Origin: Saccostrea echinata
Lineage: Eukaryota
Length of the DNA stretch: 64,000 bases
Assembly: GCF_033153115.1 (NCBI RefSeq)
Contig: NW_026889766.1
Location: 5,146,001 to 5,210,000 of the forward strand
Reading direction: 5' to 3'
This document shows, piece by piece, positions 9,253 to 63,332 of the stretch. The notes beneath the pieces are model-generated. The model did not search any database, was not told where the DNA came from, and saw nothing but the letters and a program-made list of their open reading frames with translations. The position numbers were made by a program, and so were the translations under genes. Numbering within the stretch: position 1 is the first letter of the stretch; each line of letters opens with the position of its first letter.

Positions 9253-9697
9253 ATGTGTTACGTCATCGTCACATGTCGTTCTTTAGGCTGGACGCTTTTA
9301 AGTGTCACTGTTACCTTGGCAACTGTCGCCGCTGTTATCTCGCCTCACTGGATGATCGGAACCCCTCGAGAAACTGCCATAAAATTGCTGAATGCTTCAG
9401 AAGATTTTATGGACTCTGAAACTTTCAGACCAACGCTAGGAATATTTAATAGATGTACAAAACTTCAGTTAGACTTCCAAATAGCCAAAGTCAGGGATAA
9501 TTGTGCCACATTCGTTGTGTCGTTTTCTGCAGCGGACGATTTTTTCCCGCATGCGTGGAAGGCATGTGTGATATTGTTCGGTATTGCCGGAACCCTTCTG
9601 CTCTTTTCCATGTTGTGTTCTGTAATGAGTTTGTTTGTCCGATCAATTTGTGGAAAAAGTATATTTACAGTTGCAGGATTTATACAAAGTATTGGAG
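9253..9697 (+). CDS. LHFPL2: LHFPL tetraspan subfamily member 2-like, coding exon 1
   Basis: MCYVIVTCRSLGWTLLS...PTLGIFNRC...KSIFTVAGFIQSIG matches the LHFPL2 N-terminus (MCHVIVTCRSMLWTLLS). Acceptor at 9203, phase-1 GT donor at 9698. Confidence 0.93.
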
Positions 9698-10039
9698 GTA
9701 AATATTTATAGTTACACAAGTCTTGTTCAACCTGAATAAAATCTAAAATCCCTTAGAAACATATTAAATTGGCCTTTTTGTATGATCGATATAATAATTT
9801 GGTAGACCAATAATTTCAACAGTCCGCTGACCTTTTTAAGACTGTAATACCTTCAGGGGTTCTTTTAAGACTGATGACATTGGTTACCAGCGCTCTGAAG
9901 ACTGCAATGAGGGGCAGAGAATCAGTGCTCCACATTTTCTGATTTTTTAATGTAAATAGTTAAGTAAGCCTTTAACAGTGTTTAAAATCATAATTCAAAT
10001 ATTTTAAGTTTTTAATCCCATATTTATAATTTTTTTCAG

Positions 10040-35221: not shown

Positions 35222-37342
35222 CAACTGCACTTTACCGGTACGTACAAATAACAAGAAATAGCACGTGCTCTTTCTCTATTAGAGAGTCACGCGTTAGCGT
35301 GACGATTTCGCTAAAAAGGCAATGCAATGCAAAAATATCCTATTTTATGAATTCCTCATCATTTTTTCTGTAAATAAACTTCGTTTAATTAACGAAGTTA
35401 TTAATTAAAACTGAAATCACTTTCAAAACAAACCATTTGCTCTCATTCCGTCAGCCACATTCCAAAGTCATGACATTGTTAAGCACGTAATTTATTTCAA
35501 TGCTGCGATTGGTCAAGGTAAGTGACGTTAATTTGGAGTTTGATGGTTGGGCTAAATGTAAGCAGTGAATCAGCTGATTGTAGTACTATGCCTTTTGTTT
35601 ACGATTTGTATGAGATATGCTATGAACGGGGATTTTAATCGATTGGTTGCAAATTTTTTGACTTCTTGGAAATTTTATTTGGAAACATGACTCTTGCATT
35701 GATGGAAATGTTAAATTAGTGGAAATAAGTGACATCAGATGGCGGTGCTGACAAGGATATAATAGCAAGATTAAATAAAGGCGGAGGATCCTTTGTCAAA
35801 CTTAAGAATATATGAGAGTCAAACAACATCAGCAGACACACTAAGATCAAGCTGTATAATAGCTGTGTACCATCTGTCTTAATGTATGGTGCTGAATGCT
35901 GGGGGATGACAGAAAGTGATATAAACAAACTATCAAGTTTCCATAATGGGTGCCTCAGGAAGATCTTGAGGATATTTTGGCCAGCAAAAATTACCAACAA
36001 AAATCTACATGAAACAACAAAAACAACTGATATGGGGATATTTCTAAGAAAATACAGATGGAGAGGGATTGGCCATGTCTTAAGAAAATCAACAAACGAT
36101 ATCATAAGGGTGGCACTAAGATGGACCCCAGAAGGGAAAAGGAGGAAAGTCTGACCAAAAAACAACATGGAGGCGGATAGTTGAAAAAGAACTGAAGGAC
36201 GGGAATCTTACATGAGGTGGAGAGGATAGATAAGAACAAAGAAGATTGGAAATCCCTAGTCCTTGCCCTATGTGCCTCCGGGTGCAACAAGGACTAGGTA
36301 GGTAGGTAGGTAGGTAGTGGAGGACCAATCAAGGATGGTGTTGTTTTGAGGTGTAGCAATAGACAGCGTAACAAAAAAAGTCAGTAACAGAGGGATCCTG
36401 GTTTTCCGGAAGCCATTTACTCCTAGAGCAGACAATTAAATTAACATACTACTGGGTATACGAACTACCCGGGGATTTTGTTGCAAGAATTATTATTGCA
36501 AGATTAGAAGTGACCAAACCATTGTAGACTGGAAAAACTTTGCAAGAGAGGTTTGTCTCTGCATTTCAAAACAGGACAGTGAGAGGATTGGTGGACCATT
36601 AAAAACGTGGAGATAGACGGGAGTAAATTTGGCAAGAGAAAGTACCATTGTAGTAAGAAAGTGGATGGTGTTTGGGTGTTTGGTGGGATTGAAAGGGAGT
36701 CCAAAAAGTGCTTCTTCGAAGAACTGGGGGAAAAAACACCCCGATTCCTATAATAAAGAAATTTGTAGAACCTGGAACCATTATTTTATCAGACTATTGG
36801 AAAGCATATTCTAGTTTGAAATCGGAGGGATACGGTCATCTAACTGTCGATCATTCTACAGAATTTGAAAATAAAGACACTCGAACCTGTACGAACTTTA
36901 ATGAATCTACATGGAACGCAATAAAAAAAGTTTGTACCCAAAATCGGAACACAGAAACAGCATTACGAAAGTTATTTAATTGAATATTGATTAAGAAAGA
37001 AATATTTGAAAGACGTAGACGATAAATTTACCTACTTCCTTTCCCTCATCAAACGTATTTACACCTGCAAAAGAACAACCATTGGCTTTTTTACAACAAC
37101 GCAGACCAGCTAAATGCTAGCTCAGACTTATTTGACGACTAAGGTAAGTTTAATCATATATTCACTCATATATTGGGGGCTGCCGCTACATAATCCCCGC
37201 TTAATATTGCGAAAACACACGTTTATTTTTTTTTCGCTTCCTAACAAACATTATAGTTGATACGTTGCTAAGTTTTAAAGCCGGGCCACCTCACGCACGG
37301 ATCTAGAATCAAAATGGCGACCGTACCGGTAAAGTGCATTCT
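35222..37342 (+). mobile_element. Decayed Merlin (ISXO2/IS1595-like DDE) transposon nested in Tc1
   Basis: 17-bp inverted repeat tgcactttaccggtacg (35226-35242 / 37322-37338); peptides VEIDGSKFGKRKYH, PGTIILSDYWKAY, HLTVDHS, TNFNESTW. Confidence 0.85.
35724..36314 (+). mobile_element. 5'-truncated RTE-clade LINE nested in the Merlin transposase
   Basis: YGAECW...CLRKILRIFW...GHVLR...ALRWTPEGKR RTE C-terminus with stops; (tagg)n tail; 7-bp TSD tagtgga. Confidence 0.88.
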
Positions 37343-38445
37343 ATGTTATTGAAAAAAAAAATTCCAGCAACAATCTGTAGGTTTTTGGAGCGGTATCTGG
37401 ACAGCGGGTCTATTGAAAATCGCCACCGATCTGAAAAATGGACAATTGGAATTGTCGGACACTTAATTACATCATTCGCAGGAACCGGACATCAACTCCG
37501 CTAGATATTACTGAAGAATTCACTACATTCAAAGATGACTTATCAGAAAACTATTCATAACTTTAATCTGAAAAAAGCGAACTATAGCCAAGAAGTTGGG
37601 AGTCAAACAAATAAACAGAGTACGTCGAGTTTCTTGGACCAGAAGTAAGTTAACATTGAAAGTAGGGTTGTTAAAGTCTGGAGAACAAAACGAGAGAAGT
37701 ATCTTCCCGAGTGTATTGGCCATACTAACAGGAACTTGAAAGTAATGGTGTGAGGTTGTATAACTTACCATGGCCAGGGATTATAAACTTTCGCAGACGG
37801 AAATATGGACAGCGAGAAATTTAAATGTGTAAGATGAGAAACTGTGGCCAGTTATAGCCAAATATTTCAGAAACAAACCATATATGTTTCAGGATGACAA
37901 TGCTCCACCTCATTCCTCCAGAATGACTAAAGCCTGAAACGAAAATAACAACATTTCAACCCTACCATGGCCTGCTCAATTTCCTGATGTCAATATTTGT
38001 GAAAATATTTGGCTTATCTTAAAAAATCAAGTAAAAAGACATATGATGAATATAAATACAGTTGATGATCTGAAAGCAGTACGTCAGCATGCCTGGCTTT
38101 CAATTCCTTTAATGTACATACAGAACTTATATTCCTCAATTCCTCGCCAACTTCAGTTGGTTATCAGATCAAAGGATTATATCACGAAAAATAAGTCAAC
38201 TTAGAAGAGAGGTAAGTAGTTTTTTTTTAATTAGCTTAATTAGTTTACACACAAAATTCAAAATGGCCACCAATGTACTCAGTTTTGTTACCACCCTATA
38301 TTCCATAGATACTTGATGCTTTTATTAGTAAATAAATAATTTCACCTAAACTAAAACAAAAAAAAAAGAAGTACATTTGTTTAAAGTAGTTTTCCTCACT
38401 CTTTATGTTTAAGTGTGTCAGGTACAATATGTATATGCATCGATT

Positions 38446-40419
38446 TTAATCTAAGTATTTTATTTTCAACACACAAGACTCTAACATGAATGAGGGATGT
38501 CCGTAACCAAAAAGGAACAAATTGTCCTCTGTATCTGTACACAACCCACATAATGTAACACGTTTCTCACAGCCTATGTAATGTAGGAACTGACCATCCT
38601 CATTTATGATGTGAACACAGTGATTGTTATCGTCACTTGTCAGAATATGACTCTGGCTGTCTCTAGTGATTCCTCTTGGATTGAATGGTATATTCTGTGG
38701 GTTAGGAATATGTCCATTATATCTAAACCTTAGTTTCCCGGCTTGATTGACCACCACTATTGCTTTAGCTCCACAGTCAGCCACACAGATATCAAGGTTT
38801 CTGTTCTCACATATGTATTTATCAGAAGCACCGCATGAGTAAAGAGGTTTACTCTCATCATCAAACTGTATAGATTGTTTCTCTGTGGAGGCAGAGATTC
38901 TGACAACTCTTGATTGTTTGTTTTCATCACTTTCGATGATAACCAGAAGGTCACCAGAGGAGGCACTACAGACACCGTGAGGTTTCCAGTTCGAAAACTG
39001 TAGTCTTAACACCTCCTCCATGTTCTCACTCTTCACAATGTTCACGGTTCTATCTGAGTAATCAGTGTAAATAAGATCTCCACTACTTTTCACTGCTATG
39101 TCTGCTGGTCTGTTTCCTGACTTTGTTGTTATTGTCTTGATTGGTAAGCCCTGTTTTATACTGTAGAGTGTCATGGAGCGGCTATACCCACTTATCCAAA
39201 TCTTTTCATTTCTCAAACAGGCAATAAGTCCAGGGTATCCTGATGCAATATTTCCAGTGTAGCTTAAATCAACATTTCGAGGGTAACTTGAAGCAACCTT
39301 TCTAGGGTAACCTTGCGCCAAATTTCTATTGAAGCCTGTGGCGACATTTCCATAGAAACCTGAGGTCATATTTCCATTGAAGCCTGTGACAACGTTTCCA
39401 GGGAAGAATGGAGGCATATTTCCAGGTAAGCCTGGGGCAACATTTCCAGGGAAGCCTGAAGCCATATTTCCAGGAATGCCTGATTTCATATTTCCAGGGA
39501 AGAAACCATTTCTATGGAAGCCTGGGGCAACATTTCCAGGGTAGCCTGAGGCAATATTTCCTCGATTCAACTTCTAATAATCTTTGTGTTCTCTGTATAC
39601 TGTATCCATTCTCCTCTGATTTTAGAGAAATTGATGATAAAGCTCCAAATAATTTACTAAGTTCTTCCCCTTGAATTGTCCCTGGAAGAAATGTAGGTAC
39701 TGAGAGAACAAGCTTGTGTGGAAGTTTCTTATATTTTTCTACATTGGATTTTACACTGAATGCTATTGAAATGTCATTAGTGTCTGCAGCAATTTCAAGT
39801 GAATCGATTTCGAATTTAATGGCAACAATTTTCTTGTTAACCTCATCCAGATGTTTCTGTAAAGTTTGTAACTGTGAGGTCTTCATTTCATCAGCTTGAG
39901 TTTTAAGCTTCCTGACAAGTTTGTCAATTTTTCTGTGCCAATCCTCACCATGTTTTGTTATGGCGTTGAGAGAACTCCATATTCCGTCTCTAACCGACTC
40001 ATTCTGTTTTGCACATCAGCTTCTATGTCCTGGTATGTTGGATAAATTGTTTCATTTAATTCATTTTGCTCTTTCCTTATGAAATCTTTCTTTTCACCCA
40101 CAACATGCAAAATTTTTGAGAGCTTGTGACTAAGATGTTGATCAGATGCCAGGCAAGTGTGACAGACAGGAATGTCACAATGTCTACAGTACATCTCACA
40201 TTGTTCTTCTTCATGGGAGGCACATCCAGGGTAGAGGGGGGTGGTTTTCCTAGATTGAAATTTAACCACTTTGTGATCCTTGGATTCATTTTTTGAGATG
40301 TGTTCTCCCACACATGACTTGCACACGTTGGCGAGACATGTATCGCAGTGCATCTGTACCACAGCAGTCTCACACAGATCACATCGCATCACATCCTGTG
40401 CAGTAGTACGGGTGTCCAT
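38446..40419 (-). pseudogene. RING-less TRIM-NHL-like gene A (2 B-boxes, coiled coil, NHL propeller), two frameshifts
   Basis: Three ORFs (39958-40419, 39512-39886, 38446-39570) are collinear with the intact 61300-63276 paralogue; one base missing at ~39965 and one extra at ~39563. Could be assembly errors. Confidence 0.85.
39228..39563 (-). repeat. Coding 24-bp minisatellite (8-aa GNxAxG(F/Y)P repeat, ~13 copies)
   Basis: GNIASGYP GNVAPGFH..GNMKSGIP GNMASGFP GNVAPGLP ... GNIASGYP in the ORF translation. Confidence 0.9.
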
Positions 40420-41092
40420 GATGAGTATTTGAATCTGAAAATATTAAAATTATGATTTTTTGTTGAATAATACTTGTATGAACATCATTAATACTTGATT
40501 TATGAATAGAGAAAATTGTGAGATAATCTTTTCCCCGCTTTTTCTTAACCTGGTTTACTTCTCTCTCAATAATGGATATCAAGTCTATATTTATATAAGC
40601 AAGTGTCTTATGTCAAAATGACAGAAGAACATAATTACTTCAAAGGTATCAATTTTAAAGGCATAAAATCAGATTTTTTTAGTACGTATTAACTACAGCA
40701 AAATGTTAATAATTTGTACGAACAAACAAGCTTCAAACTTTATGCTACTCGCTAATCAGCCAAGACTTTGTTTTCAACGGTTCAATTAGGATTGTATCTG
40801 AACATAAAAGTTCTGAGATTTATTGATTTCCCACAATAGTATTAAAAGTTTCTCTTTTTTGGTTTATGAATTCAAATGAATATGAAATCGTGTATCACTG
40901 ACCATTGATCTAACAGGTCTGTTATGATTCTTTGACTGTCAGACACATTCATTTGTAGGAACATAAATACTTAACATTTAACGCAATACCTCGATTACAA
41001 AATATTTCAAAAGATATATAGATATCAGAGTAAATTATGAGTTAAAAGGAAAAAAGTCTAGAATTCAAAATAATTCTATACATAATTATTAC

Positions 41093-43880: not shown

Positions 43881-43959
43881 TAAGATTAAGTAAATACTAA
43901 TATTAGTTCGAGCAGATAAATATATTTATTGGCTGTCATAATATAATACATTATATTCC

Positions 43960-44237
43960 AAATACAATTTATCATTGAGTCAAATGCTGACTGTCGTTTT
44001 TCATACTAATTGTTAGGCCATTATTTACACACTGAATTGTCGACGGATTTTTCCGTTATTTCCCGATCATGACAAGGAGCACACGGCGGGTGTGACCGGT
44101 CGGCAGGGTATGCTCACTTCTCCATGTCACCTGATCCCACCTCTGATGCTTAGAGGTCCGTGTTTGCTCTGCTCCTATTTTGTATTGTTTAATGGACTTT
44201 TGAGCTTGAATACTGTTCGTTATCTCCACATATTTCA
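43960..44237 (+). mobile_element. Penelope-like 3' end fragment
   Basis: Closely matches 31553-31820. Confidence 0.85.
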
Positions 44238-44379
44238 TAATACAATTCGGGAATTGCTTACCTTTGCATAGAAGCTGAAATCAAGCAAGCACAGGATTTG
44301 CTGTACCTATTGATTTGATCAATATTTATGATATCAAGGAAAAATACGTAATTGTAAGCTATAAAAAGGTAGAAAAAAA

Positions 44380-47300
44380 TCTGTAAATTTTATCAATATT
44401 TTCAGTCATTAAAAAGTATGTAAAATACTTATACATGAAACAACATATTTTATTAGATGTTTTGTGCATTTTCTGATTTCAAAAAAAAAAAAAAAAAAAA
44501 AATCATTCACAATTAAACATATTGAAACTATGCAAACTTTTGTGATTTATATTTTTAATTTCCTTTTAAAAATAATTCAAATTAAGTATTTTAACTCTGT
44601 GCTGACAAGAACTTGACAGCCCATTTCAAATGAATAATTTTGGCATGGCAAGATTGCGAAAATAGCCCAACAACACAAACAGAACACAAACAAGAAAAAG
44701 GTATCCAAGTTTTGAAAGCCTACTTATGATGAAACAAACTAAAATAACTTAAAAGTAGATATATTTGAAATATACATGACTGTATCTTTCCATGCAGATG
44801 CCATTGAATTTATTTGTAATCCTAACTGTTACAGACTGATAGCTAGAGGGCGCTGTACTCTTCTGGAACTGCTGGAGTGTGGATCACGGGGTTGGAAACC
44901 ATTATATAACGACCTGACGCGATTATACTGTGACACTGTGGTAGAGATATTTGCCACAAGAATCGAGTGACCCCCATTTTACAACCGTAGAATTACACCT
45001 TGTTACAACAGGAAGAGCTTCTGTTACGTCACGTGTCTGGTATGAATTCAAAAGAGCGTGACTGTATCCTGTCTGCTGAACTGTTACATTATATTTTTTT
45101 AGACATGACATATCAACATGTTCTGTTTAGATGAATTGAGAAGGCACCACTTGGTATGATTTCAGAGTTTGGCCTTATTTTTGTTCATGTGTTCACATGT
45201 TTTGCACAGATGACAAGTTTTGAACTTAAATTTTTGGATTTTATTTTTGGCAAGTTTAACAGAATCTCAAAAATTACTCCAAAAAATAGCCAACAAAAGA
45301 AAATACCTGCTATGCAGTATATATATGTTCTTTGCTGTTAACATTTAACAAAGTTTGAAAATTTTTCCTGACAAGTATATAATTTATTGTGTAGAGAGGC
45401 ATCTACATTCAATAATTAATTCAAAAATTAAATCATAATTGATTTTTTGTGGCCTTATTTTAATTTCTGCAATACTGAATATTTTGTGTCCAGTGTTACA
45501 TGTATCTATATTGATACTAAGGGAATTGTGGTGGTTCGATACAGAATATTTTAGTAATAATCCATTCTCTGTAAAATATTTGTTAAAGGGCATTATGATT
45601 GATTGTCTATTGTTTAGCGCCGAGTCGGCAATATTTCAGCCATGTTTCGGCGGACTGGCATTTGATATGCAATAGCTTTGATAAAAGCCTGTAGTATGTC
45701 AAATGTTTGAGTTAAACTTTCAAAAGTACATCGTAGTTTTGTGTCAAATGATATGAGATCATGAGAGGTAACCTTTTTTATCATTGTTTTGTCATTCATA
45801 CTGAATTATGTTTTTTACTTCTATAATTAGTCCACGATTAGTTGACCTGGGTGTCGCAAAGTGAACTTACGATTGATAAGTACATTTACAAAAGTTCAGG
45901 GTAATAGCTTATGTAATTTTTTTTCTTGATAAAAACTTCTTCTCTCATATTTCTTAATTCTAAATTTAAAAAAAATTGGATTTTTCATTCTAAAATAGAA
46001 ATTTTAAAAAATTCCAATATAAAGGCTCACATGGTCAGCTTTTGATTTTCTGTGACCTTTAATTAACATAAAAAGTTAGTAGCACTGTCTAAATGGTTAC
46101 TCAAATGCTATTCTGTTTGATCAGTTTATCATGAGTGGACAATATTTGACCATTTATTATACAGGTATTCCTAGTCTACTAATTGTACCACTGAAATATA
46201 GCTAAGATATTACCGACTCGGCAATAAAATGGTTAATGCAGTTAAATTTCATTTGTAGGAAAAATCTTATCAAAATTTCTTTTACAGTAGAAGTTAATCT
46301 AAACCAATCAATTATTCCATGGAATATCACCTTATTTAGCAACAGTACGGTCAAAGAATGTTTTAGAAAAATGGAAAATGTTATTTTGAGAATAAGATAT
46401 TTTGGCACACCATGCAGATTGGGCAAGTTTATTTACTGCAATATTTTTCATAAATGATAATGCTAGATTTCTTTATTCACTTCCACAGTTATTAAGGTAT
46501 CAAATTCTTCAAAGATCAAAGATTTTGATTTTAACAAATCACAGTTATGTAAACAGGTTTTCTAAGACTACAAACACAACTTGGATTATCCTGTCTCAGT
46601 CATATACAGTACAAATGAATATGACTTTTTTATTCATTTATCGAACAGGTTAGGAATTTTGTACTTCTATAGAATTTTGTCTTTGATTCACAATCGATCA
46701 GTCTTCACAAACTAAAAGTAGAGACAGTGTACTTTTACATTCACCAAAGATAATTTGTTATTTGACACACAGTGTATAAATATGCTTCTTTATTAAACAA
46801 AATGGAAGAGAATTGCATAAAATGTTCAGTTTTTTTTGTGACAAATTAAACATAGTTGAAGTTGCACATTTTGTACTTTTCACAACTTGAACAAAATGTT
46901 ACTCATTTCATTCTGATTTTTTCAGATAATAATTTTTTCTAAACATTAACAATTATTCAAAGATTTCTTTTTCTCATGCTGTCTTCAAGTTTGCAGTGTG
47001 ATAAAATTATGTTCGAGGTAGGGCTATAATCAAATCTCGAATGTGGCTTTAGAGTTTATTCAAGTTGTCGTCCTTGAAAAGTCTGAGAGAGCATTACGTT
47101 TACATGGTTTTGGAAATTCGTATGATTATTTTGAAAAAAAGGATGTTATTTATTCATGTTTAAATATAGGTTTGTCCTTGACAGATTTATTTTCTATTGA
47201 GCTGATAACCTGGTAGCTCCGAAACAGTAAAAGTTAATGATTTGTTGTCTATAAATATTTTAAGAAACTTCATTAGAACCAGCTCATAGCACATGACATA

Positions 47301-47620
47301 CTGGGCACTTACACGAGGGTCCATGTCTTTGTTTCTTAGAGCTGTAGAAAAAGATGAGAATTTTCTTATTCCATAAATGCCTTAAAGTACCTTTTTCTCT
47401 ATGAATTCAGAAAGTATATTCAAGAGGAACTATTTCAATGAACTGTTTTCTTAATATGAGAGACTAATGTATTGAAAATTCCCTTTTTATTGGTCAAGTC
47501 ATACATTGATAAAAATTTTTTCTAAATAAACTGATTACTTTAGTATTGAAGGTGTTTTTGTTTACTTTTTGTACATTAATAAAATTTTCTAGGTTTTGTT
47601 GCGTCATAAAACTTATAATG
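44380..47620 (+). repeat. Segmental duplicate 2 of CTIF-like intron 4 end, exon 5, 3' UTR and flank
   Basis: Collinear with 19905-22870; ~375 bp of the UTR is deleted near 45220. Confidence 0.92.
44835..44970 (+). pseudogene. Orphan copy of CTIF-like terminal exon (acceptor, frame and stop intact)
   Basis: ttacag acceptor; LIARGRCTLLELLECGSRGWKPLYNDLTRLYCDTVVEIFATRIE*; no copies of exons 1-4 seen upstream. Confidence 0.85.
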
Positions 47621-47629
47621 GTATCATTA

Positions 47630-47995
47630 TTGAATTTTTCAGTCATATGAGACGTCACCATATACCAGTGAAGGTCTTGAAATTAAGACCTTACTCAGGG
47701 ATATTGAGCAGTGAGTGTTCTTTTTCATGCCAACACCTTCAGAGACACGGGACCTTGGCTTCAAATTCATACCAATCTGATCACTCAGGGCCATTGAGCA
47801 GTGAGGGTTTACACTCGTGCCAAGTCCTACCGAAACACGAGACCTTGGTTTTCAAGGTTTCATCCGAAAAAACAATGACTTTCACGTCTTATGCCGGGTG
47901 CGTGAAGATGGAACAGTCTCTATATTAGGTTTAGCGCGGCGCCATGAACAAAAATCGATTCCGGACAAGAAGCTACCGCTCTACCAGTGGGCTAA
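47630..47995 (-). mobile_element. Degenerate SINE with internal duplication of the core
   Basis: Two ttgagcagtgag core copies; matches the SINE reverse complement. Confidence 0.65.
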
Positions 47996-50467: not shown

Positions 50468-52212
50468 TCACATATATTTTATTTTCATAACGCAACTGTG
50501 CGTATAAAATAAGTCATCCATTTCTTTATCCTTTTCTTTGCATATAACAAACAGATTGCCAACTGCATCTGTACAGATTCCATATGGTTTATTCTTTCCA
50601 AAGGTTAAGTAATGTAGGAACTGTCCATCGTGGTCCATGATATGGACACAGCGATTATCATAATCAGTTGTAAGGATGTGACTCTGACTGTCTGTAGTGA
50701 TTCCTCGTGGACTGAATGGTTTATTCTTCGGAGCAGGAGTATGTCCAGTATATTTAAATCTCAGTTTCCCGGCCTGATTGACCACAACTATTGCTTTAGC
50801 TTCATAATCAGCCACACAGATATCAAGGTTCATGTTTTCACATATATATTTGTATCGGCGAAAACCATCAGATGAGTAGAGAGCTTTACCCTTATCATCA
50901 AATTGAATGGTTTGTTTCTCTATGCAACCAGAATATCGAACAACTTTCGATTGTTTTTTGTCATCACTTTCCATAGTAACCAGGTGGTCAGCAGAGGAAG
51001 TGCTACAGACATTGCGAGGTCTCCAGTTCTGTAGTCTGATCACCTCCTTTATGTCTTCATTCTTCACAATGTTGACAGTTCTATACATGCCATCAGTATA
51101 AATGAGATCTCCAGTACTTTTCACTGCTATGTCTTCTGGCATGCTTTTTGACTTCGTTCTGATAAACCTGTTTTGTGAATGCTCTTTGATATCGTATAGT
51201 TCTATAATATTGCTTTCATCACACATCCATATTTTTTCATCACCCAGACACGAAATATTTTGAGGATCATTTGAAAGATAGAAAATGTCGATGTAAACCT
51301 GATGGAATCCAAAGTCTGGTGATTTCTTTTTGAGTAACAGAGAGGAACCAGCTTTTGGTAATTCTTGCATACCTGTAGTCTTCAATCTGTAGCCATGTTC
51401 TTCAATGTAAACAAAAATGGCGATAAACCTCCAAATTGATGACAGAATGTTTCGTCTTGAATTGTCCTTGGAGTGAATTTTGGTAGGGAAGGTACAAGTT
51501 TTTGTGGAAGCTCTTGATATTGATCTGTCTTGGGTCTTACACTTATAAATCTTGCAATGTCATTGGTGTGTTCAGCAATACATGTATCAAATGAATCAAT
51601 TTCATCTTTAATGTCAATAATTTTCTTGTTAATTTCATCCAAATGTTTCCGCAAAGTTTGTAACTGAGAGCTCTTCATTTCATCAACTTGGGATTTAAGT
51701 TTCTTCACAACTTTGTCAACTTTTCTGTGCCAGTAATGTCCACGTTTTGTGATGGCCTCTGAGATCCCTTTATATTCCCTTTCTAGCTCACTTATTCTGT
51801 TTTGAACATCAGCTGCAATGTGCTGATAGGTCGGATAAATAGTTTCATTTAATTGATTTAGCTCTTTTTTAATCATTTCTTTCTTTTCCCCCAGAACTTG
51901 TAAGATTTTTGATAATCTATGACCGAGGTGTTGATCAGATGCCAGGCAGGTGCAACAGACAGGAATTGCACAGTGTCTACAGTACATCTCGCATCGTTCT
52001 TTTTCATGGAAGGCACAACCAGGGTAGAGGGGAGTGGAATTTCTAAACTGAAATCTGACCACTTTGTGATCTTTAAAGTCATCAGTAGAAATGTGTTCTC
52101 CCACACAGGCATTGCACAGGTTATTATGGCATGTATCACAGTGCATCTGTACTTCAGCAATCTCACATAAGTCACATCTGATCACATCCTGGGAACTAGT
52201 ATTGGGGTCCAT
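50468..52212 (-). pseudogene. RING-less TRIM-NHL-like gene B, single frameshift (or intact gene with an assembly error)
   Basis: ORF 51382-52212 (B-boxes, coiled coil) plus ORF 50468-51385 (NHL). Adding one base at ~51405 restores EEHGYRLKTT, homologous to SEEDGYSMKTT. Acceptor at 52228. Confidence 0.85.
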
Positions 52213-52516
52213 ACCTTCGTGTTGTGGCTATGAAAATTAAAAAAAAAAAATTTTATACTGATAAATATTTAAAAAAACAACATTTGAAAGGGTCTTTTTA
52301 GCTCTACTGGTCAGACAGTAGAAGACCTTAATAAGCATTAATAAGGTTTTTTTTTTGTCTGATCGTCTGTATAGTTATCTATCTGTAAACAATTCTTTAA
52401 AATGCTCTTCCTTTTACAATTTTAGTGCGATTTTAGTAAGACTTGGCAAGCAATTAACTAATTAAGGGGGAATGCCCCTCTGTTAAGAGGGATAACATTA
52501 CAAGAAAAAAAATAAG

Positions 52517-52760
52517 GAGATGCCACCACCTGCCGGTGAAGAGCTGCAAATTTTGACCTATACTCGGCACTTAGGGCCATTGAGCAGTGAGGGATCTTTT
52601 TCGAGCCAGCACCACCTGCGACACATGACCTCTGTTTATACGGTCACATCAGAAGGACCGGTCTCTACGTCCCACGGTGGGATTCGAACCTGCGACTTAA
52701 GGATCAACTCCTTACGCCGCGACTCTAGAGCAAACGCTCTAACCACTGCGCCACGCGGGC
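52517..52760 (-). mobile_element. Related SINE family with a different tRNA head
   Basis: Minus-strand head gcccgcgtggcgcagtggttagagcg...ggttcgaatcc with the shared cactgctcaatggccc core. Confidence 0.8.
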
Positions 52761-53879
52761 AGCTCCATTTTTGGAAAGAACATATCATTAAATTCTTAAC
52801 TAAGAAAATAATGATTCACGCTGCTGCACGCTAAAGAATTGCCAATGTTTGATATCAAAATGTGTAAATATCAATCCAAGATAACTGAAGCTAACTAACT
52901 ATTTAACAATTCAACATGAGGCCTTACAAAAATCAAATGAGTACCTTTTAGGTAGAGTTTTTTAAAGAGTAAATTTTAGGTGTTGAAAAGAACAAAATTT
53001 TTATGCACAATTTATATTGATATTCATATAACCTGACCAACTCAAATCTGTTTAATGATATACTCTATATAATAACTCTGATGAAAGATTTTGCATTGAA
53101 TTATCTTCTGCAAATGATCTACAAAGTGACAACATATTTTCATTACGTATATCAAAACTGAAATAAGGACTAAACCCTGAAGTACATGTACCTCGGCATT
53201 AATAGTCTAGCTAGAGAATAACATGCCTGTATACAAACTTCTGACTTCAATTATTCAGATAACTATAACGTCATTCAAAGGGATTGCCAAATATTCAATA
53301 TGTTTGTAGTTTAAATAGAAGACCTTTATGCGATTCTCCAACGAAAACCTTTGATAGATCACAAAACACCATACAACAAGTTTTTCTCTCATCAATGCTT
53401 TTAAAATAACATTAAGAATAATTGACAATCGGCTGAGTGACCCTGTAAGAAACCTGCCAGATATTGATTATACACCGTTGGCCTTTTATCTCTCATAGTT
53501 TTAATTATGCAATCCAATAAGTGAAGCTAGTCCGTAATTTAATGCAGGAGATCTAATGTTTAATGTTGATAGATTTGAAATTTTTTTTTTTATAAAAAGA
53601 GGAAGAATGTGAGCTAATATGATTCCTGACACTTAAAAAACTACATAAATCTGTTTCAACTTATATGACACTATACCCGTCTTAAACAAAAATATACACA
53701 ATTGAAAAATAAGGAAATAAATAAAAATAAAACAAGATAAAAAAATCAATCTATAGTTTTTACTTCTTTACAAACAAGGAAAAAATGACTGTCGAAGCTA
53801 GGTTCAATTAATATATACAAAGTATAAAAAAAATCAATTTAAAATGAAATTAATGAATTATTTAACCAAGACTTATTAC

Positions 53880-53957
53880 CTGACTAGAACTAAGTAAAGG
53901 CGGCTGTCCTTACCAACGGAAACGCAACACAATATTGATGTTTCTACGTCACGTGAC
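53880..53957 (-). promoter_or_regulatory. Non-coding first exon and core promoter of TRIM-like B with GTCACGTGAC palindrome
   Basis: Donor cag|gtaata at 53879; GTCACGTGAC at 53948-53957; homologous to 41093-41170. Confidence 0.55.
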
Positions 53958-54219
53958 CAACATACTCGTGTGGTTAATCTCTCACCAGAGGGTGCTATAC
54001 TACATCGATAGTACCGGGAATGATAACTCCGGGTAGAGAGTATATTACTTTCCCGTTTTATTCTAGGTATATAACATGTCTACTCTCATGCCTACCGATA
54101 CTCTGCTCTTAATTGATCTTTAATTGTGCATACAACCAAGTGAAGGCTGATGAATGGTACGGCACATAAAAGTTTATCTTTCCTGACCTTTTCAAACCTG
54201 AATACGCATGTAAATCACC

Positions 54220-55045
54220 ACAAATATCTTGGTAATTTCAGTGTCAGATCATGTGAAGAAGCTAAGAGGAAGTTTACATCAGCAATGCTGGTAGATATCA
54301 GTGACTTCCATGATGTCCAGTGTCAACATTTGTATCGCAAACTTGCATTATATTACACAAAAATACCAGCAGCTGAGTATATCTTTTACAGAAATCTTGG
54401 TAACTTCAATGCCAGGTCATGTGCAGAAGCTGAGAGGAAGTTTATGTCAGCAATATTAAAACATGTAGATATAAGCTAATTCTGAATCTACTAACTTCAA
54501 TGATGTCAACATTTTAATCGCAAACTTGGAATATATTACTCAAAAAGTACTAATGCATAAAGATATCACTACCGATATCTTGGTAACATCAGTACCAGAT
54601 CATGTGGAGAAACAGAGGAAGTTTACATCAGTGATATTAGTAGATATCATCTTAGTAAGAGCACAGTTACTTCAGTGATGTTAAGAATTGTATAAAATTT
54701 ACGTACGATTCACAAATAGTATTAGTAGTTGAAAAGATGACTAAAGGTAAATGTCAATCGTCATCAAATATTATGTGGAGAACCTTGAAGACAATTCTTA
54801 TTACCTGTATCAGTAGATATCAAGTCTCTAAATACTAAGCTACTTGGGGAATGTTAACTTCTTACCAAAAAAAAACGGATTCATATGTCACAAAACGTAC
54901 TAGTTGCTAAAGATATTACAATAGATATCTTGGTAACTTCATTGCCAAATCATGTAGAGAATTAAACAGTAGGTTACATCAGCAACATTAGTTGATATTA
55001 GCTTAGTAAGAACCAAGTTACCTCAATGATGTCAATATTTGCATG
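54220..55045. repeat. ~175-bp tandem repeat, about 5 diverged copies
   Basis: atcttggtaacttcantgccagatcatgtg.agaa recurs at ~54226, 54394, 54578, ~54750 and 54928. Confidence 0.8.
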
Positions 55046-55624
55046 GCAAACAAGCTTTTTTTCAAAGATATAATTATTTCAAAATGCACACGAAACGACA
55101 GTATTAAACTTCAAGTATTAATTTAAAGTAGCATACTATGATATCAGATATTTTTACTAGCGAAACAAAAATAAGAGATTGTTATTCAAAAACTTTAAAA
55201 AATGCATTCAAAACATTTTTTTCCTTTAAATTAATATTGGTAATGTAGCCATTAAATAGAAACTACGTACCTTTAATAACATTTTAAGTCAGTTTCTAGT
55301 AGCCAGCTACTGTAGTAACTAGCTTTACTCACACTTCGCAGCCAGTTACTAGTAGCTAGCTTTATTCATCTTTTAAGTCAGTTACTAGTAGCCAGGTACT
55401 TGCAGCTAACTTTACACATCTATCACACTGTCATTATAACAGGTTAATACAAGTATCATAGTAATTTTCAATATCTAAAATCATTTGGTTGTATTGAAAA
55501 CTTATATATACAGGAAGATTTGATGTTATTAGTTACAAGAGACAAATATATTTTATGTTATCACTGCAGTTGTTACAATTTAAAATATGTAATAGGTACC
55601 TAAAAATATGCACAGCAGGTGGCA

Positions 55625-58600
55625 TATCTGTAAAATTTGTCAGCATTTTAAGTCTCTGAAAAATATGTAAAAATACTTGATACATGGAAAAATACATTTA
55701 TATTTTATTATATATATTGTGCATTTTCTTATTCACAGAAAATGTTCATTAGGCTTGACAGGAAGACAAAGTATCATTTCAATTTTATATTCAAAATACA
55801 TTTAAGAATGCTTTTCAACTGTGTGTTAGCATGATCTTAGCAGTCAAGATTAAATGAATTATTTGGCAAGATAAAAGCAAAAAATGTATTACTATTTTCA
55901 CCAAACATGACCTGATAAATACTATAATTAACCAAATTCCAAATAACTTGGCATATATACATATGGAAAATAATATGCTCATGCACCTTTTGATACAGAT
56001 GAACCTAGATTATAATTTATAACTCTGTTACAGACTGACAACTAGGGGGCGTTGTACTCTTCTGGAGCTGTTGGACTGTGGATCAAGGGGATGGAAGCCA
56101 TTATCTAACGACCTCACTCGTAAAACAGAAAGAGCTTCACTGGTTCAGTCACTTGGCTGTTAAGTGTTCACTGGAGCGTCACTGACCTGTCTGCTGAACC
56201 GTGACATTTTATTTTTAGAAATTAAGTATCAGTAAGTTTGGTTTTGATGAAACGAGAAGGCACCAATATGTTTAATTTCAGGGTTGAGCTTTATTTTTGT
56301 TCAGGTGTTTACTTTTTTTTTGCACAAGTGGGTCAAATTTGGCATAGGTGGGTCAAGTTTTCATGAGAACACTAATGTTTTACTACTGGTTGAACTTGTT
56401 AAATTTGAGCTATATTATAATCAAAACATATCAATTATAATGCAGGAAAAATTTCATTTAAAAAAATTATTTTTTATAAAATTTGAACATCCCTTTGGAA
56501 AAGAGTATTTTTCTACAATTTTGTAAATGCCATGGAGCAACATTTGAGTATCATTCAGAACAGAGTTTCCTATTTTAGATTGAAATTCTGTTATGGTTAA
56601 CTATAGGATCTGCATTTCTGTTATATAATCTTTCTCTCTTTTGTTTTGCATCTAAATTATATTTTTGGAAATTTAATTTCTGAGTTTGCAATTTTTGCAG
56701 TTTCATTCGAAGTGCAGAGTTAGAGCAACTATATCAAATTTGACAGTACCTCATAAACTCCTTAAAAAATGGACAATCACAGAAACTACCTGCTATGTAG
56801 TATATACGCACTTCAATGTTATTGTTTTTTTAAATATGTAAACAAAGTTGATAATTTTTCTTAAGCAAGGGTAAAATTAATTGTATAAAAAAGACTCCTT
56901 AAAAAATGGACAATCACAGAAATAACCTGCTATGTAGTATATACGCACTTCAATGTTATTGTTTTTTTTTTTAAATATGCAAACAAAGTTGTTAATTTTT
57001 CTTAAGCAAGGTTAAAATTAATTGTATAAAAATAATTTAGATTAATTAAGTAATTCAAAAATGAAATTATAATTGATTCTTTGTCCCCTAATTATTACTC
57101 CTGCAATATTGAATATTTCAGGTTCAGTATTATCTACATGTATAATGATACTATTTTTATTGTGGTGTTTCCTATATGATTTTTTTTTTGGATGATCCAT
57201 TCTCTGTTCAATGTTTTAAGGGCATTATTATTGAATTGATGCTTAAGGCTAATTGATTACATTCCTTGTGACTTTAAAATATATCTCAAACTTAATGTAT
57301 ATAACGAATTATATATTATAATGAAGCATAAGCGTCCCTCCCTAGCTGAAGCACTTCACTATAAGCGTGCATTCCCGTAAAGATATGCATAAGCTTTAAT
57401 AAAAGTCTGTATACAGAATATTGAATTTTTTTTAATTACAGTTTAAGTTTTGTGTCAATTGATATGTATACACGAGTACCTTTATTTTCTCACTGTTTTA
57501 TCATTCTTGTTAGATTATGTTCATTCTTCTATTGTTATTGCACGATTAATTGAACCAGGTGTTGAAAAGTGAACTTTTGGTTCAGTTGACAAAATTTATG
57601 GGGTAACAGCATGTGTAAAATTTTTTTTTTTAATTTTTTTTTTTTTTTTTTTTTTTTTTTGATGAACAACTTGAAAAATTTGATGAAATTTTGTTATTGT
57701 AAATTTAATTAAAACAATCAAAAAATAAAAAAAATGAAATCCCTGTGAGAATGCTGACATGATTAGCGTTATATTTTTGTAATTTTGCGTGATTTATAAC
57801 AGAAAGTGAGTAGAGTTGTTTAAATGGTAACTTAAATGTTACTCTGTCTGGTCAGGTTACCACGTGTGGAAAATAATTAGGTAATATTCACCTTTTCGAC
57901 TTATGCATATGGTAAATATGGCTGAGATATTGCCGACTCAGTGTTCAGCAGTAATAAATCAATCTAGTTAGGGCTGATGAAATTATAATTTTATTTATGG
58001 GAAAAATCTTATAAATCTTATAATGATATCACAGTAACACGTTTACGTAAACCGATCATTAGTTCCACGGAATGGAATCATATTCAGCCACAGAAGGGAC
58101 GGAGAATATGTTACAAACAGAAAATTATGTTTTAGGAATAAGATATTTTGCACATCACATAGAATAGACAAGTTCATTTCCTGTAATATTTTTTGATAAA
58201 TGATAACGCTAGATATTTTTAAAAATTCATTTTCCAATTTTAATAAGGTATCAAATTTTGCACAGATCAGGTTTTCTTAAGACAACAAACACAACTTGGA
58301 ATATCCTGTCTCAGTCATATACAGTAACTTTCAAGCAAATGAATGTGATTTTTTTTTACTTTCAGTTTAGGAAATTTATTACTGCTTCTATACAATTTAT
58401 GCTTTGAATTAATATGTCTTCACAAACTGAAAGTATACCTTCACATTCACCAAAGTAATTTGTTATTTGACTCACAGTGTAAAAATATGCTTCTTTATTC
58501 AACAAAATGGAAAAGAAGTGCATAAAATATTTTCTACCTCTCACAACTTGATCAAAATGTTATGCATTTATTCTTATTTTTTTTTCAAAAAACGAATTCT

Positions 58601-59650
58601 TATAAACTTTAAAAATTCTACAGAGTATTTTTTCCCCATACTGTACTTCAGGTTTGCAGAGTAATAAAATAATAATAAGGCTAAAATCAAATTTCGAATG
58701 TGACTTAAGAGTTTATTCTAGTCGTCCTTGAATATATCTGACAGAGCATAACGTTTACGTAGTTTTGGTAACTTGTATGATCATTCTGAAAAGAAAAAAT
58801 AAAATGTTATTTATTAACGTATAAAGTTACTGAATTGTTATGACATTGACACTGAGAAGATAACTTGATAGCTTTGAATTAGTAATAGCTTAGGATTTGT
58901 TGTTTATATAAATATTTGAAGAAATGTCATTGAAACTAGTTCACATTACGTACCTGGCAAATACGACGGTCCATGTTTCCATGTTCTGGAGTTGTAGGAA
59001 AGAAATTGAATTATTTATTCCATAAATGCCTTAGATTACCTTTTCCATTAGAATTTACAACGTATTTTCAAAGGAAATCATTTAAAAGGATCGTAAAACC
59101 CAACATGTATTGAAATTTCCCCTTGTATTAGTCAATGCATACGTTAAATTTTATAAAAATTCTTTCTATATATATATAGACTGATAACTCTAGCACGGAA
59201 ATTGTTAACAATTACATTTTTTAAGTTACTGTAAAAATATTTAGGTTGTGCTGTATCAAAAATTTCTAATGGTATAATTTTTAGAATCTTTGTAACCTCG
59301 TTGTTTTAGGTCCCTTAGACACGTTCTCGGCACTCAGGACTTTTGAACAGTGAGGGTTGTTTATTGTGTCAATTTCTACAGTGATACAGGACCTCAGTTT
59401 TTAAGGTCTCACTAGAAAGACCAATACTTTTTACATCCAATGTTGGGCGCTTGGCAAAAGAATAATCTCTATATATGTGTAGTGCCTTACGTCTGATTTG
59501 GAATCGGGATCGAAAATCAAAGCAGATACTTTCGATCAATAGACTGCAAGGAACAGTAACGATAAATGTGAATGTACCTTGATATTTGTTATAATAAATC
59601 CAGTATTCCTATCAGTATCCACCCCTGTCATTTTTACTCGCAAAACAATT
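55625..59650 (+). repeat. Segmental duplicate 3 (more diverged) of CTIF-like intron 4 end, exon 5, 3' UTR and flank
   Basis: Collinear with 19905-22870 and 44380-47620; includes a 138-bp local tandem duplication at 56757-57030. Confidence 0.88.
56034..56163 (+). pseudogene. Orphan copy of CTIF-like terminal exon with 3' deletion and new C-terminus
   Basis: ttacag acceptor; LTTRGRCTLLELLDCGSRGWKPLSNDLTR then KTERASLVQSLGC* read from former UTR. Confidence 0.8.
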
Positions 59651-60182
59651 ACTGGTTAGTCTAATTTTAGCCTTTCACAGGAAAACGCAACTTTTGACTG
59701 ACTGAAATTTTAAAGTCATTTGTTAATTACAAAATTGTGAGCGAACGTTATGAAACAATAACATTTTTTCCCATGACTTAAAAAATTGATGCGTATTCTA
59801 GAGCAGTTTTGAAGAAAAAATTATCTTAGTATTTTAAAAAATGTTACCCAGTGTCTTTTAATAATAGAAAATACATTTATAAGAAAGAATTCAAAACTTC
59901 TAAGGATCCTGACCAGTTACTAGGACAAGTATGTGAAATTGATACTAAAAGGAAACTCGAAAATTATCTTAATTTCCTCGCTTACAAAATTTGTAAAAAT
60001 TCTAGTAAGACAGACATGTGAAAATGAACAAATAGATAAGTTTAAAATTATTTGATGGTGTGTTAGTCTCAGGTGAACATTATACATAATATAGCCAGTT
60101 TAGCCGGCAAACTTTCTTCTATATTACATTCGGTTTTTTCCTACATTTTCCATATTTCATGTTTTGTTACAATTGCCCTTGC

Positions 60183-60531
60183 ACCGTCATGGTAGCTCAG
60201 TCGGTAGAGAGCTCGCTCCGTGTTCGGAAGGTTGTGTGTTCGAATCATGGCCGCGACTGACCTTGGTCAATAAAAACAGGTAGCAACTGTTCCTTCGCCA
60301 AGCGCTCGGCACTTTGAAGTGAAAGTTGCGGGTCTTTCGGATGAGACCTTAAAATCCGAGGCCTCGTCTCACGGTAGGGGTTGGCACGATAAAGAACCCT
60401 CACTCCTGAATGGCCCTGAGCGCCGAGTAAAGGTCTTAATTTGAAGCCCTTCACCGGTACATGGTGACGTCTCTATATGAGTGAAAAATTCTTGAAAGGG
60501 ACGTAAAACAACATACAATTAATTAATCATT
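60183..60531 (+). mobile_element. Full-length tRNA-derived SINE
   Basis: A and B boxes, core, 13-bp TSD caattg(c/t)ccttgc. Confidence 0.92.
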
Positions 60532-60759
60532 CAATTGTCCTTGCTAATTTAATGATAGTTGAAAGTATTTGTAATAAAAGACTATGTTTTGATAATTTAA
60601 TTTGCAGCGTAGTCCGTCCATATTTGACATAATGGTTATCATGAATAAATATTATCATCTTAACATACACAAAACAGCAAGTATATCAGGTATATGCTAC
60701 ATTTCCTCTGCATTTCGACACAGTTGTTTCAAAAGTTGCCAATGAAAAACTGCTTTAAC

Positions 60760-60978
60760 ATCAAGTATTTTATTATCTTCACATTGTTTGACAGACCTGG
60801 AAAAATGAGTCTGACAACAACATAGAGATTGATATCTTTTATCTCCACTCAAATTGTAAGGAAGAAAAAATTGAACTTTCTGTAACGTAGGAATTATCCG
60901 TTCTGGTCTATGATGTGAACGCATAAATATCATAATCACTTGTACATGTTTAACTCTTGACTGTCTGTAGTGATTCCA
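60760..60978 (-). pseudogene. Relic of a TRIM-NHL C-terminus
   Basis: Minus-strand translation gives GITTDSQ...CVHIIDQNG*FLRY...VKIIKYL with stops. Confidence 0.75.
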
Positions 60979-61090
60979 TTTTGACTGAACACTTTATTCT
61001 ATGGTTTAGTATCTTTGTCCTGGCTAATGTTATGATAGGTCATAATAAGAAAAAAGTCTTTCTGGTTAAAATATGTCTGGCTGTATTCTT

Positions 61091-61093
<3 letters not shown>

Positions 61094-61181
<88 letters not shown>
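61094..61181. repeat. (TA)n microsatellite, ~44 units
   Basis: Direct reading. Confidence 0.99.
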
Positions 61182-61183
<2 letters not shown>

Positions 61184-61299
61184 CAGAAAATAAGTGATCC
61201 ATAAAACATACAGAAATTAAAGAGTACATCAGCTATAAATATGTTTTAGTTACTTCTGCATTTAGACTCTTGTGTCTCAAGAAAATAACTTGATTGATT

Positions 61300-63276
61300 T
61301 CATCGTAAAAATTCAACTTTCTGCACTGTGTTTGGAGAAGAAGAATTTAATTCTGCGACTGCTAGAAACAGATTGTCATCTGAATCGATACACATCCTAT
61401 AAGGTCGAAACTTAAACTTAATGTAGCGTAGGAAATCTCCATTTTTGTCTAAGATGTGGACACAGCAATTATTATAATCCCCTGTAAGGATATTACTTTG
61501 ACTATCTGTGATGATTCCTTTTGGATTGAATACTTTATCAAGTGGGCCAGGTGTGTGTCCATCATATCTGAATTTCAGTTCCCCGACCTGATTGACCACC
61601 ACTACCGCTTTAGCTCCACAATCAGCCACACAGATATCAAGGTTCTTGTTTTCACATATGTGTTTATCAGAACCATCAGATGAATAGAGAAGTTTACCTT
61701 GATCATCAAACTGAATGGATTGATTCTCTGTTGAGCCAGAGTATCGGGTAACTTTTGATTGTTTATCATCACTTTCCATGGTAACGAGCAGGTCACCAGA
61801 GGAGGTGCTACAGACACCAAGAGGTTTCCAGCTTTGTAGTCTGATCACTTCTTGTATCTCTTTTTCTTTTACAATGTTCACAGTTCTCTCCTTCTTATCA
61901 GTATAAACAAGTTCTCCACTTCCCGTTACTGCTAAGTCTGTTGGGATGTTCCCAGACCTGGTTGTGATTGACTTAAGTTCAGAAGTGTTATTGATACTGT
62001 ACAGTTCCATAAAATTGTTGCCTTTACATGTAAGCCATATCTTTGTCTTTCCCAGACAAGCAATATTTATCATCAATTTTGAACATGGTATACTTGTGCT
62101 AAAAATCTGTGGTTCATTCTGCAGCTTTTTGATTAAAAAAGGGGATGCATCTTCTACTGATTTCTGTATCACTGGGGAAGGGAATCCATCTTCTGGTGAT
62201 TTCTTTTCAAATGACGGAAGGGAAGTAACTTCTGGTGATTTCTTTTCAAATGACGGAGGGGAAGTAACTTCAGGTGGTTTTTGTTCGCCTAAAGATGGGA
62301 ACAAGTTCATCTTTAGTGGTTTCGGCGGCACTGGTGGAAAGAATCGGGCTTCTGATGATTGTTGTTTAGCTTGAGGAGAGGATCTAGCTTCTGATGTATT
62401 TTGTCCGACTGGAGGAAAGGATTCCTCTTCTGATGATTCCTGTGTTGTCTTCATACTGTAACCATCCTCCTCTGACGTATCAGATACTAACAATAAAGCT
62501 CCAAAGAGTTTATGAAGTTCCTCCCCTTGAATTGGCCCTGGAATGAATTTAGGTACAAATGATACAAGTTTTTGTGGAAGCTTTTTATATTGATCTACAA
62601 TGGATCTTACATTGATTGTTGTTGAAATGTCATTGGAGTTTGCAGCGGTATCAAGTGAATCGATTTCAATTTTCATGTTGTCAATTTTTTTGTTTATGTC
62701 ATCCAAATGCTTTTTTAATGATTCAAGCTGTGAGACCTTAGTTTCATTAGCCTGAGCCTTAAATTTCGAGACAAGTTGGTCAATTTGCTGGTGCAGGTTA
62801 TTTCCATGTTGTGTTATGGTTGCTGAGAGATCTCCATATTCCTCCTCTAACTGACTTATTCTGATCTGTACGTCAGAGGCAATGCTCTTGTAGGTTGGAT
62901 AAATTCTTTTATGCAATTCAGTTTGCTCTTTTTTTATCATATCTTGCTTTTCACTAAGAACTTGCAAGATTTTTGATAACGTATGACTGAGGTGATGATT
63001 CGTTGCTAGGCAACTGTGACAGACGGGAATATCACAGTGTCGGCAATACATCGCACATTGTTCCTCCTCGTGGGAGGCACAATCGGGATAGAGGGGAGTG
63101 GTATTCCTATACTGAAAATTCACAACTTTGTGATCCTTGGAATCATCCTTTGAGATGTGTTCTCCCACACATGCTTTGCACAGGTTGGCGAGACATCTAT
63201 CACAGTGCATCTGTACTATAGCCGTCTCACAAAGATCACATCGCATCAGGTCCTGGGCAGTGGTACGGGGGTACAT
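61300..63276 (-). CDS. RING-less TRIM-NHL-like protein C (TRIM2/3/71-like architecture), 658 aa, single coding exon
   Basis: CxxC..CxxC..CxxC..H..H B-box 1, CxxH..CxxC..CxxC..H..H B-box 2, coiled coil, Pro/Ser-rich linker, NHL blades (PTDLAV, PLGVC, PKGII, CVHILDKNGDFL); acceptor at 63295. Confidence 0.93.
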   Translation of the reverse strand: MYPRTTAQDLMRCDLCETAIVQMHCDRCLANLCKACVGEHISKDDSKDHKVVNFQYRNTTPLYPDCASHEEEQCAMYCRHCDIPVCHSCLATNHHLSHTLSKILQVLSEKQDMIKKEQTELHKRIYPTYKSIASDVQIRISQLEEEYGDLSATITQHGNNLHQQIDQLVSKFKAQANETKVSQLESLKKHLDDINKKIDNMKIEIDSLDTAANSNDISTTINVRSIVDQYKKLPQKLVSFVPKFIPGPIQGEELHKLFGALLLVSDTSEEDGYSMKTTQESSEEESFPPVGQNTSEARSSPQAKQQSSEARFFPPVPPKPLKMNLFPSLGEQKPPEVTSPPSFEKKSPEVTSLPSFEKKSPEDGFPSPVIQKSVEDASPFLIKKLQNEPQIFSTSIPCSKLMINIACLGKTKIWLTCKGNNFMELYSINNTSELKSITTRSGNIPTDLAVTGSGELVYTDKKERTVNIVKEKEIQEVIRLQSWKPLGVCSTSSGDLLVTMESDDKQSKVTRYSGSTENQSIQFDDQGKLLYSSDGSDKHICENKNLDICVADCGAKAVVVVNQVGELKFRYDGHTPGPLDKVFNPKGIITDSQSNILTGDYNNCCVHILDKNGDFLRYIKFKFRPYRMCIDSDDNLFLAVAELNSSSPNTVQKVEFLR

Positions 63277-63332
63277 GACTTAGACCTTGTGGATCTAAAA
63301 CAAAATAGACACTATAGGACTTTCTGTTTATA

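Follow-up and report, generated by a model that had tools for sequence, protein, structure and literature searches.

The last coding exon of a CTIF/SLIP1-family gene occurs three times, in one orientation, in the 64,000-nt stretch of the Saccostrea echinata genome analyzed here (the window; positions 5,146,001 to 5,210,000 of contig NW_026889766.1). The most distal copy (copy C, 56034..56163, + strand) has lost its original end and carries a signature of purifying selection that, judged from the sequence, is very probably real. Our preferred explanation, to which we assign a probability of roughly 40%, is that copy C is a once-used distal alternative last exon that was spliced to exon 4, represents the oldest spare copy, and is now decaying.

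The host gene and the copies of its last exon

Five coding exons on the + strand (14778..14882, 17102..17393, 19117..19313, 19655..19746, and 20315..20450) make up the host gene, and all of its introns are GT-AG. Exon 4 ends at a phase 2 GTATGT donor that is available to every copy of exon 5. When exons 1–4 are joined to the normal last exon (copy A, 20315..20450), the translation is identical to P0043, the S. echinata protein XP_061180726.1 ("CTIF-like isoform X1"). The RG-rich N terminus, which begins in exon 1, comprises approximately 45 residues and is predicted to be disordered. An AlphaFold model and a structure match indicate a MIF4G-like helical domain and a C-terminal helix past the HEAT repeats; exon 5 contributes predicted helices at residues 232–246 and 254–272, the latter modeled with low confidence (pLDDT approximately 50–60). 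The Pfam MIF4G match, located at exon 3, is weak (E = 0.0015, under the curated cut-off), and the best solved relative is zebrafish SLIP1 (E = 1e-24, residues 82–262 aligned). "CTIF/SLIP1 family", which does not presuppose a CBP80-binding region, is a safer label than the database name CTIF-like. Upstream of the host gene, there is an LHFPL-family exon at 9217–9711 (+ strand; Pfam PF10242, E = 5e-18).

Copy C lies downstream of exon 5 on the same strand and is 85% identical to it over 96 nt. It consists of 29 homologous codons, interrupted at 56120/56121 by an 82-nt deletion equivalent to 20402–20483 of A, which removed the last 15 codons, the stop codon, and 33 nt of UTR; translation would continue into 13 new residues taken from the former UTR and end at a TAA (56161–56163). 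Joined to exons 1–4, C gives a clean 271-codon frame. The AG acceptor and its phase are kept, the final nine intron bases are the same in A, B, and C, and the split Gly codon is GG-G in A and GG-A in C; a branch-point-like motif is less clear in C than in A and B. The deletion and the retained acceptor had been reported in a first-pass annotation of the region, and both were confirmed. The same annotation called C an orphan, which does not hold: a third copy of the exon (copy B, 44835..44970, + strand) had been missed, and C sits in a segmental duplicate. Its flanks are indeed clearly diverged from those of A, as had been described (K2P 0.28–0.50), but they can still be aligned over approximately 3.7 kb; C is therefore part of a segmental duplicate rather than a free-standing exon.

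In a self-comparison of the window, each of A, B, and C stands at the head of a tandem unit comprising the tail of intron 4, exon 5, UTR, and a downstream spacer, followed by an antisense B-box/NHL gene. Unit B spans 44235..47639 (+ strand). Unit C begins with its intron-4 tail (55552..56033, + strand) and continues into a copy of the 3′ UTR and spacer (56121..59291, + strand) that is 65–75% identical to the counterparts in A and B; the UTR copy has no special conservation, and the first AATAAA or ATTAAA hexamer after the stop is at 57398, such hexamers being common in AT-rich DNA. The left breakpoints of units B and C both fall within intron 4. That of unit B adjoins a dispersed repeat (43959–44238), and short repeat arrays (54214–55051 and 55313–55392) lie just upstream of that of unit C (approximately 55552). 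Non-coding distances (K2P) are 0.09–0.24 between A and B and 0.28–0.50 between A and C, which makes C the oldest copy. Neither duplicate is accompanied by the earlier part of the gene: in the interval 52230–56034, all eight exon/strand tests for exons 1–4 scored below the best of 40 shuffles, in agreement with the first-pass annotation, and none of the 16 tests run upstream of either B or C exceeded its shuffles.

The antisense neighbors were scanned for RING, B-box, and NHL matches; B-box and NHL were found in the frames scanned and RING was not, and so we refer to them as TRIM-like rather than TRIM. The first (38446..40422, - strand) and second (50468..52212, - strand) have B-box and NHL matches in frames that are broken in the assembly, with first stops at codons 154 and 276, respectively, and may be pseudogenes, contain small introns, or reflect assembly errors. 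The third (61300..63276, - strand) has an intact 658-codon frame with B-box, coiled coil, and NHL, is arranged tail-to-tail with unit C, and encodes a product with no exact match in the protein collection. A tree of the TRIM-like genes left 8 of its 13 inner branches open at depth and gives no order of the units. Between copy A and the first TRIM-like gene, the spacer contains open frames at 31072–31608, 35816–36154, 36693–36983, and 37938–38204 that, by eye, resemble mobile-element fragments (reverse-transcriptase-like and transposase-like).

Selection on copy C compared with other remnants

Contig C63 is collinear with this region at 93–97% identity on both sides and likely represents the other haplotype. 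It carries the same host gene (P0042) and neither B nor C. Among its TRIM-like genes are decayed remnants of exons 2–5 (D, E, G, and H) and one UTR-only remnant (F). D comprises exons 2–4 and part of intron 1, and E comprises exons 2–5; H is common to both haplotypes and is located at window-extended position 77709 on the one studied here. All matches in a genome-wide search mapped to this locus, with at least eight to exon 2, at least four to exon 3, and at least four to exon 5. Across 414 kb, exon 1 occurs only as the two parental alleles, whereas exon 2 has five extra copies. Most of the remnants (D, E, G, and H) look dead from birth, and none of the exon 2–4 remnants rejects that state (P = 0.08–0.99). 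Comparison of the units for an ancestral left junction common to all of them gave a mixed picture: the breakpoint of E is sharp and lies 28 nt upstream of exon 2, but D extends beyond it into intron 1, and the flank of C is not alignable at the junction of E. From the host gene to the shared distal TRIM-like genes (C63:90001–290000), the arrays differ in unit number and content, and an inverted exon-2 remnant lies at about C63:218127–218357. The spacer and third TRIM-like gene of the window (58272–63331) match C63:226395–232442 at 80–88%, with neighbors on both sides at 93–97%; either the haplotypes are deeply diverged in this block or the pairing is non-allelic.

Over the 29 aligned codons (56035–56121 in C and 20316–20402 in A), C and A differ by 12 synonymous and 2 non-synonymous codon changes (A232T and E243D), and the count in the first-pass annotation was exact; third positions hold 11 of the 14 changes. 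A copy dead since duplication would be expected to have roughly equal numbers of both kinds, and the binomial probability of two or fewer among 14 is 0.001–0.004. Nine other remnant fragments served as controls (H of contig C17, the allele of C63 H, was omitted). Pooled, these have 91 synonymous and 125 non-synonymous differences and also contain stops and frameshifts. For the contrast with C, Fisher P = 0.0017, or 0.0033 if the breakpoint codon is excluded, and the value becomes approximately 0.02 once multiplied by six copy lineages. The non-synonymous divergence of C is 0.033 (95% CI 0.004–0.12) compared with a flank-based branch of approximately 0.14–0.25, whereas pN for D and E (approximately 0.08–0.13) is in line with their flanks. 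In simulations of a dead C, two or fewer non-synonymous changes arose with P = 0.0003–0.017 or lower at flank-based branches of 0.14–0.25. When both branches were simulated under selection, a length of 0.25 each fitted the data, with a mean of 9.6 synonymous changes. Both amino acid changes fall on the branch leading to C because S. cucullata and M. gigas share the residues of A; the synonymous changes are unrooted, and metagenome scans for outgroup DNA with which to root them confirmed 0 of 138 and 0 of 543 candidates.

It is improbable, in our judgment, that C has been dead since duplication and that the 12:2 ratio is a small-number outlier from a genome-wide read. The test rests on 29 codons and 14 changes, C is one of six copy lineages and was chosen after the fact, the simulated P rises to 0.07–0.08 if the branch of C is 0.10, and a comparison of B with C alone gives P = 0.03–0.07. 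Set against this are the local controls and the joint outcome of at least 12 synonymous and at most 2 non-synonymous changes, which was reached in no more than 1 in 4000 simulated runs in each of 12 settings. Gene conversion from A was rejected by reasoning, as it would reduce synonymous and non-synonymous changes alike. An antisense frame was also considered as the source of constraint: two minus-strand frames contain stops, and the stop-free third came without supporting evidence. The earlier claim that this exon was translated for a long time is thus supported by the internal control (P = 0.002), and C was likely translated for most of its history, which says nothing of its present use.

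Copy B retains a full frame and stop, with the changes T231I, S253Y, F259L, M264V, and S271R. Compared with A, it has five synonymous and five non-synonymous changes (P = 0.43 for dead since duplication, in a test of low power). B thus looks neutral although it is annotated as spliced, and splicing alone does not yield purifying selection.

Annotated isoforms and the predicted dimer surface

RefSeq isoform X2 (XP_061180727.1, a predicted record) equals exons 1–4 plus copy B, letter for letter, which implies a 25,088-nt intron spanning one antisense gene. RefSeq-type gene models normally rest on aligned transcripts. The first-pass annotation had proposed splicing of C from the exon 4 donor (19746); a distal route of this kind is plausible at the locus, but the annotated copy is B, at 25 kb, and not C, at 36 kb. 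In the four-member RefSeq cluster, one record contains B, three have an A-type end, and none contains C. A sequencing-run search with 55900–56800 listed no run, which counts neither for nor against use of C. In Ostrea edulis, two of four records have short, different exon-5-like ends, a pattern suggesting that duplication of this kind has also taken place in a second genus. The 17 protein matches included one cluster per oyster species, although clustering at 90% might hide a second paralogue. A protein search with the C exon gave four longer proteins among six candidates, none with the residues of C, and no candidate of 23–74 residues; both are weak negatives from a search that missed the species' own cluster.

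Host residues R222, E243, and F259 align to R178, E200, and Y215 of SLIP1, which are described as dimer-interface residues (PMC3763545), and the E243D site matches a dimer salt bridge. A homodimer model of the host protein scored 0.70 compared with 0.21 for the best control, a result that may reflect memory of the solved SLIP1 dimer; the score mark was attained for 21 of 30 homodimers of solved structure (eukaryotes, 17 of 29) and for 0 of 23 monomers. At least 95% of contacts agreed among runs, with pLDDT of at least 90. Exon 5 codes for 10 of the 18 named interface residues, including 232, 243, 259, 263, and 267. Both substitutions in C and three of its lost residues (259, 263, and 267) are therefore in the predicted interface, and F259L in copy B also falls on a predicted dimer residue. 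E243, Y260, and D262 do not vary among the 17 molluscan proteins compared; in C, E243 is changed to D, and Y260 and D262 were removed by the deletion. Given how much of the predicted interface is coded by exon 5, a C-type protein would probably be dimer-impaired according to the model. With C also absent from the other haplotype and from the annotation, we consider a decaying exon more probable than a new isoform under selection, and the evidence on its present state leans that way.

Explanations for copy C and related systems

The tandem units, the pattern of non-synonymous and synonymous changes, the lesions in C, and its absence from the other haplotype are observed, and the mechanism that we infer behind the copies would run as follows. 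The 3′ end of the host gene is tail-to-tail with a TRIM-like cluster that would gain and lose units, so that copies of the intron-4 tail, exon 5, and UTR could land downstream in the same orientation with an acceptor ready. Such copies would not need a promoter: skipping of the acceptor and poly(A) site of A would leave the exon 4 donor to pair with the next copy. Since exon 5 codes for much of the predicted homodimer surface, selection would act against defective variants of a copy in regular use. C would have been damaged later by the 82-nt deletion and E243D, and the younger copy B, now situated between A and C, may intercept read-through transcripts. Several results sit poorly with this scheme. 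None of the four RefSeq cluster members uses C, and B is spliced in the annotation yet has a 5:5 ratio. Had B shielded C since the A/B split (approximately 0.12 changes per site), about seven amino acid changes would be expected in C, compared with the two observed, so shielding would require that B and C became neighbors only at a late stage. D and E are near-whole-gene duplicates, which shows that a duplication extending to exon 1 was also feasible, and the array loses units easily.

C could instead be what is left, at the 3′ end, of a full tandem paralogue that functioned for a long time and whose promoter and exons 1–4 disappeared fairly recently when the TRIM-like array underwent unequal crossing-over or deletion; we regard this as unlikely, though a serious contender. 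A complete paralogue is the simplest source of purifying selection; duplicates of exons 2–4 and 2–5 do exist on C63, the haplotypes differ in the units kept, and the neutral-looking B implies that a copy may escape constraint even when it is spliced distally. The 414 kb, however, hold no copy of exon 1 beyond the parental alleles, no trace of exons 1–4 was found upstream of C, the signature of C is seen in no exon 2–4 remnant, and no second paralogue appears among the 17 protein matches, within the limits of their clustering. We favor the distal alternative last exon over the lost paralogue because of X2, the O. edulis ends, the lack of an exon-1 copy, and the lack of a selected exon 2–4 remnant. 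These are the two routes that the first-pass annotation had offered; both stand, and this assembly alone does not separate them.

It would be still less expected for C to be a working exon 5 from a long-separated haplotype or lineage, captured beside A through unequal crossing-over within intron 4. The positions of the left breakpoints of units B and C would suit such an event, and the TRIM-like gene beside C differs by 13% from its C63 counterpart, compared with 1–2% for the A alleles, which means that deep haplotypes may exist; the non-coding A–C distance, however, is roughly 15–45 times the A–A63 allelic divergence of 0.008–0.019, too deep for ordinary alleles. We give similarly little weight to C being still used and selected as the last exon of a 271-residue isoform with an altered dimer surface (A232T, E243D, and the new tail) and untouched partner-binding helices (exons 2–3), which would be monomeric or dimer-diluting. 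The frame with exons 1–4 is clean, the acceptor is kept, the changes and losses described above lie in the predicted homodimer interface, and a human SLIP1 mutant at E200 is described as impaired in dimerization with SLBP binding kept (PMC3763545). Yet C is absent from the other haplotype and from every annotated isoform, two changes among the 7 interface positions of the 29 carry a P of approximately 0.05, and the new tail, derived from old UTR, has no sign of selection. A broader version of this proposal is that gain and loss of units in an immune-type TRIM-like cluster repeatedly supply a housekeeping translation-factor gene with distal last exons that are haplotype-specific and alter its dimer interface, with C still spliced across 36 kb into a monomeric or dimer-diluting isoform, the same process occurring independently in Ostrea, and the isoform repertoire depending on haplotype; this too we hold to be improbable.

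Duplicated terminal exons and promoterless truncated duplicates are both known. Tandem-duplicated, mutually exclusive terminal exons are described for exon 10 of AOX in the oyster C. virginica, where expression of both forms was measured (PMC5589949), and for Drosophila pip (PMC9013439). As far as those descriptions go, the present locus resembles them in having homologous last-exon copies in one orientation that share an upstream donor; it differs in that the copies are 25 and 36 kb away, with antisense TRIM-like genes within the alternative intron, and are passengers of a neighboring cluster that vary between haplotypes, C being truncated and known here from sequence alone. ROCK1P1 is described as a 5′-truncated, promoterless partial gene duplicate in a segmental duplication (PMC6169893). 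The oyster copies are likewise promoterless 3′-end copies made by segmental duplication, and D, E, G, and H look dead from birth. Unlike duplicates of that type, which acquire new promoters or fuse with neighbors, they lie downstream of their parent and could splice back to it, and C bears a purifying-selection signature. The host protein itself is like the MIF4G proteins SLIP1/MIF4GD and CTIF (PDB: 4JHJ and 2I2O; PMC3763545) in its match to zebrafish SLIP1, its aligned dimer residues, and its predicted homodimer, and unlike them in its length of 273 residues and its short RG-rich N terminus. Among freely accessible main texts, we found none that treats CTIF and MIF4G together in oyster, and no title concerned this locus. 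The features that set it apart are the origin of the copies as passengers of an antisense cluster, the distance, the haplotype difference, and the series of fates at one locus.

The locus offers a compact natural case of the birth and death of alternative last exons, bringing together the normal A, the young, neutral-looking, and annotated B, the old, apparently once-selected, and damaged C, and copies that look dead from birth as controls. Because the copies would stem from the instability of a neighboring cluster and the haplotypes differ, RNA-seq and resequencing data that already exist allow tests of how the copies are used and what becomes of them. Should C still be in use, it would likely yield a dimer-altered CTIF/SLIP1-type factor; if not, then it is a relic of modest interest. 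Variation at the exon 5 end also extends to other oysters. Among the O. edulis records P0004, P0025, P0026, and P0027, the full-length isoforms have a derived exon-5 start and the two short ones an ancestral one, a residue pattern that could reflect turnover between exon-5 copies. The C. virginica-type exon-5 ends differ among P0002, P0003, P0019, P0020, P0022, and P0023 in their last residues, with one read-through, and represent either alleles or further exon-5 copies.
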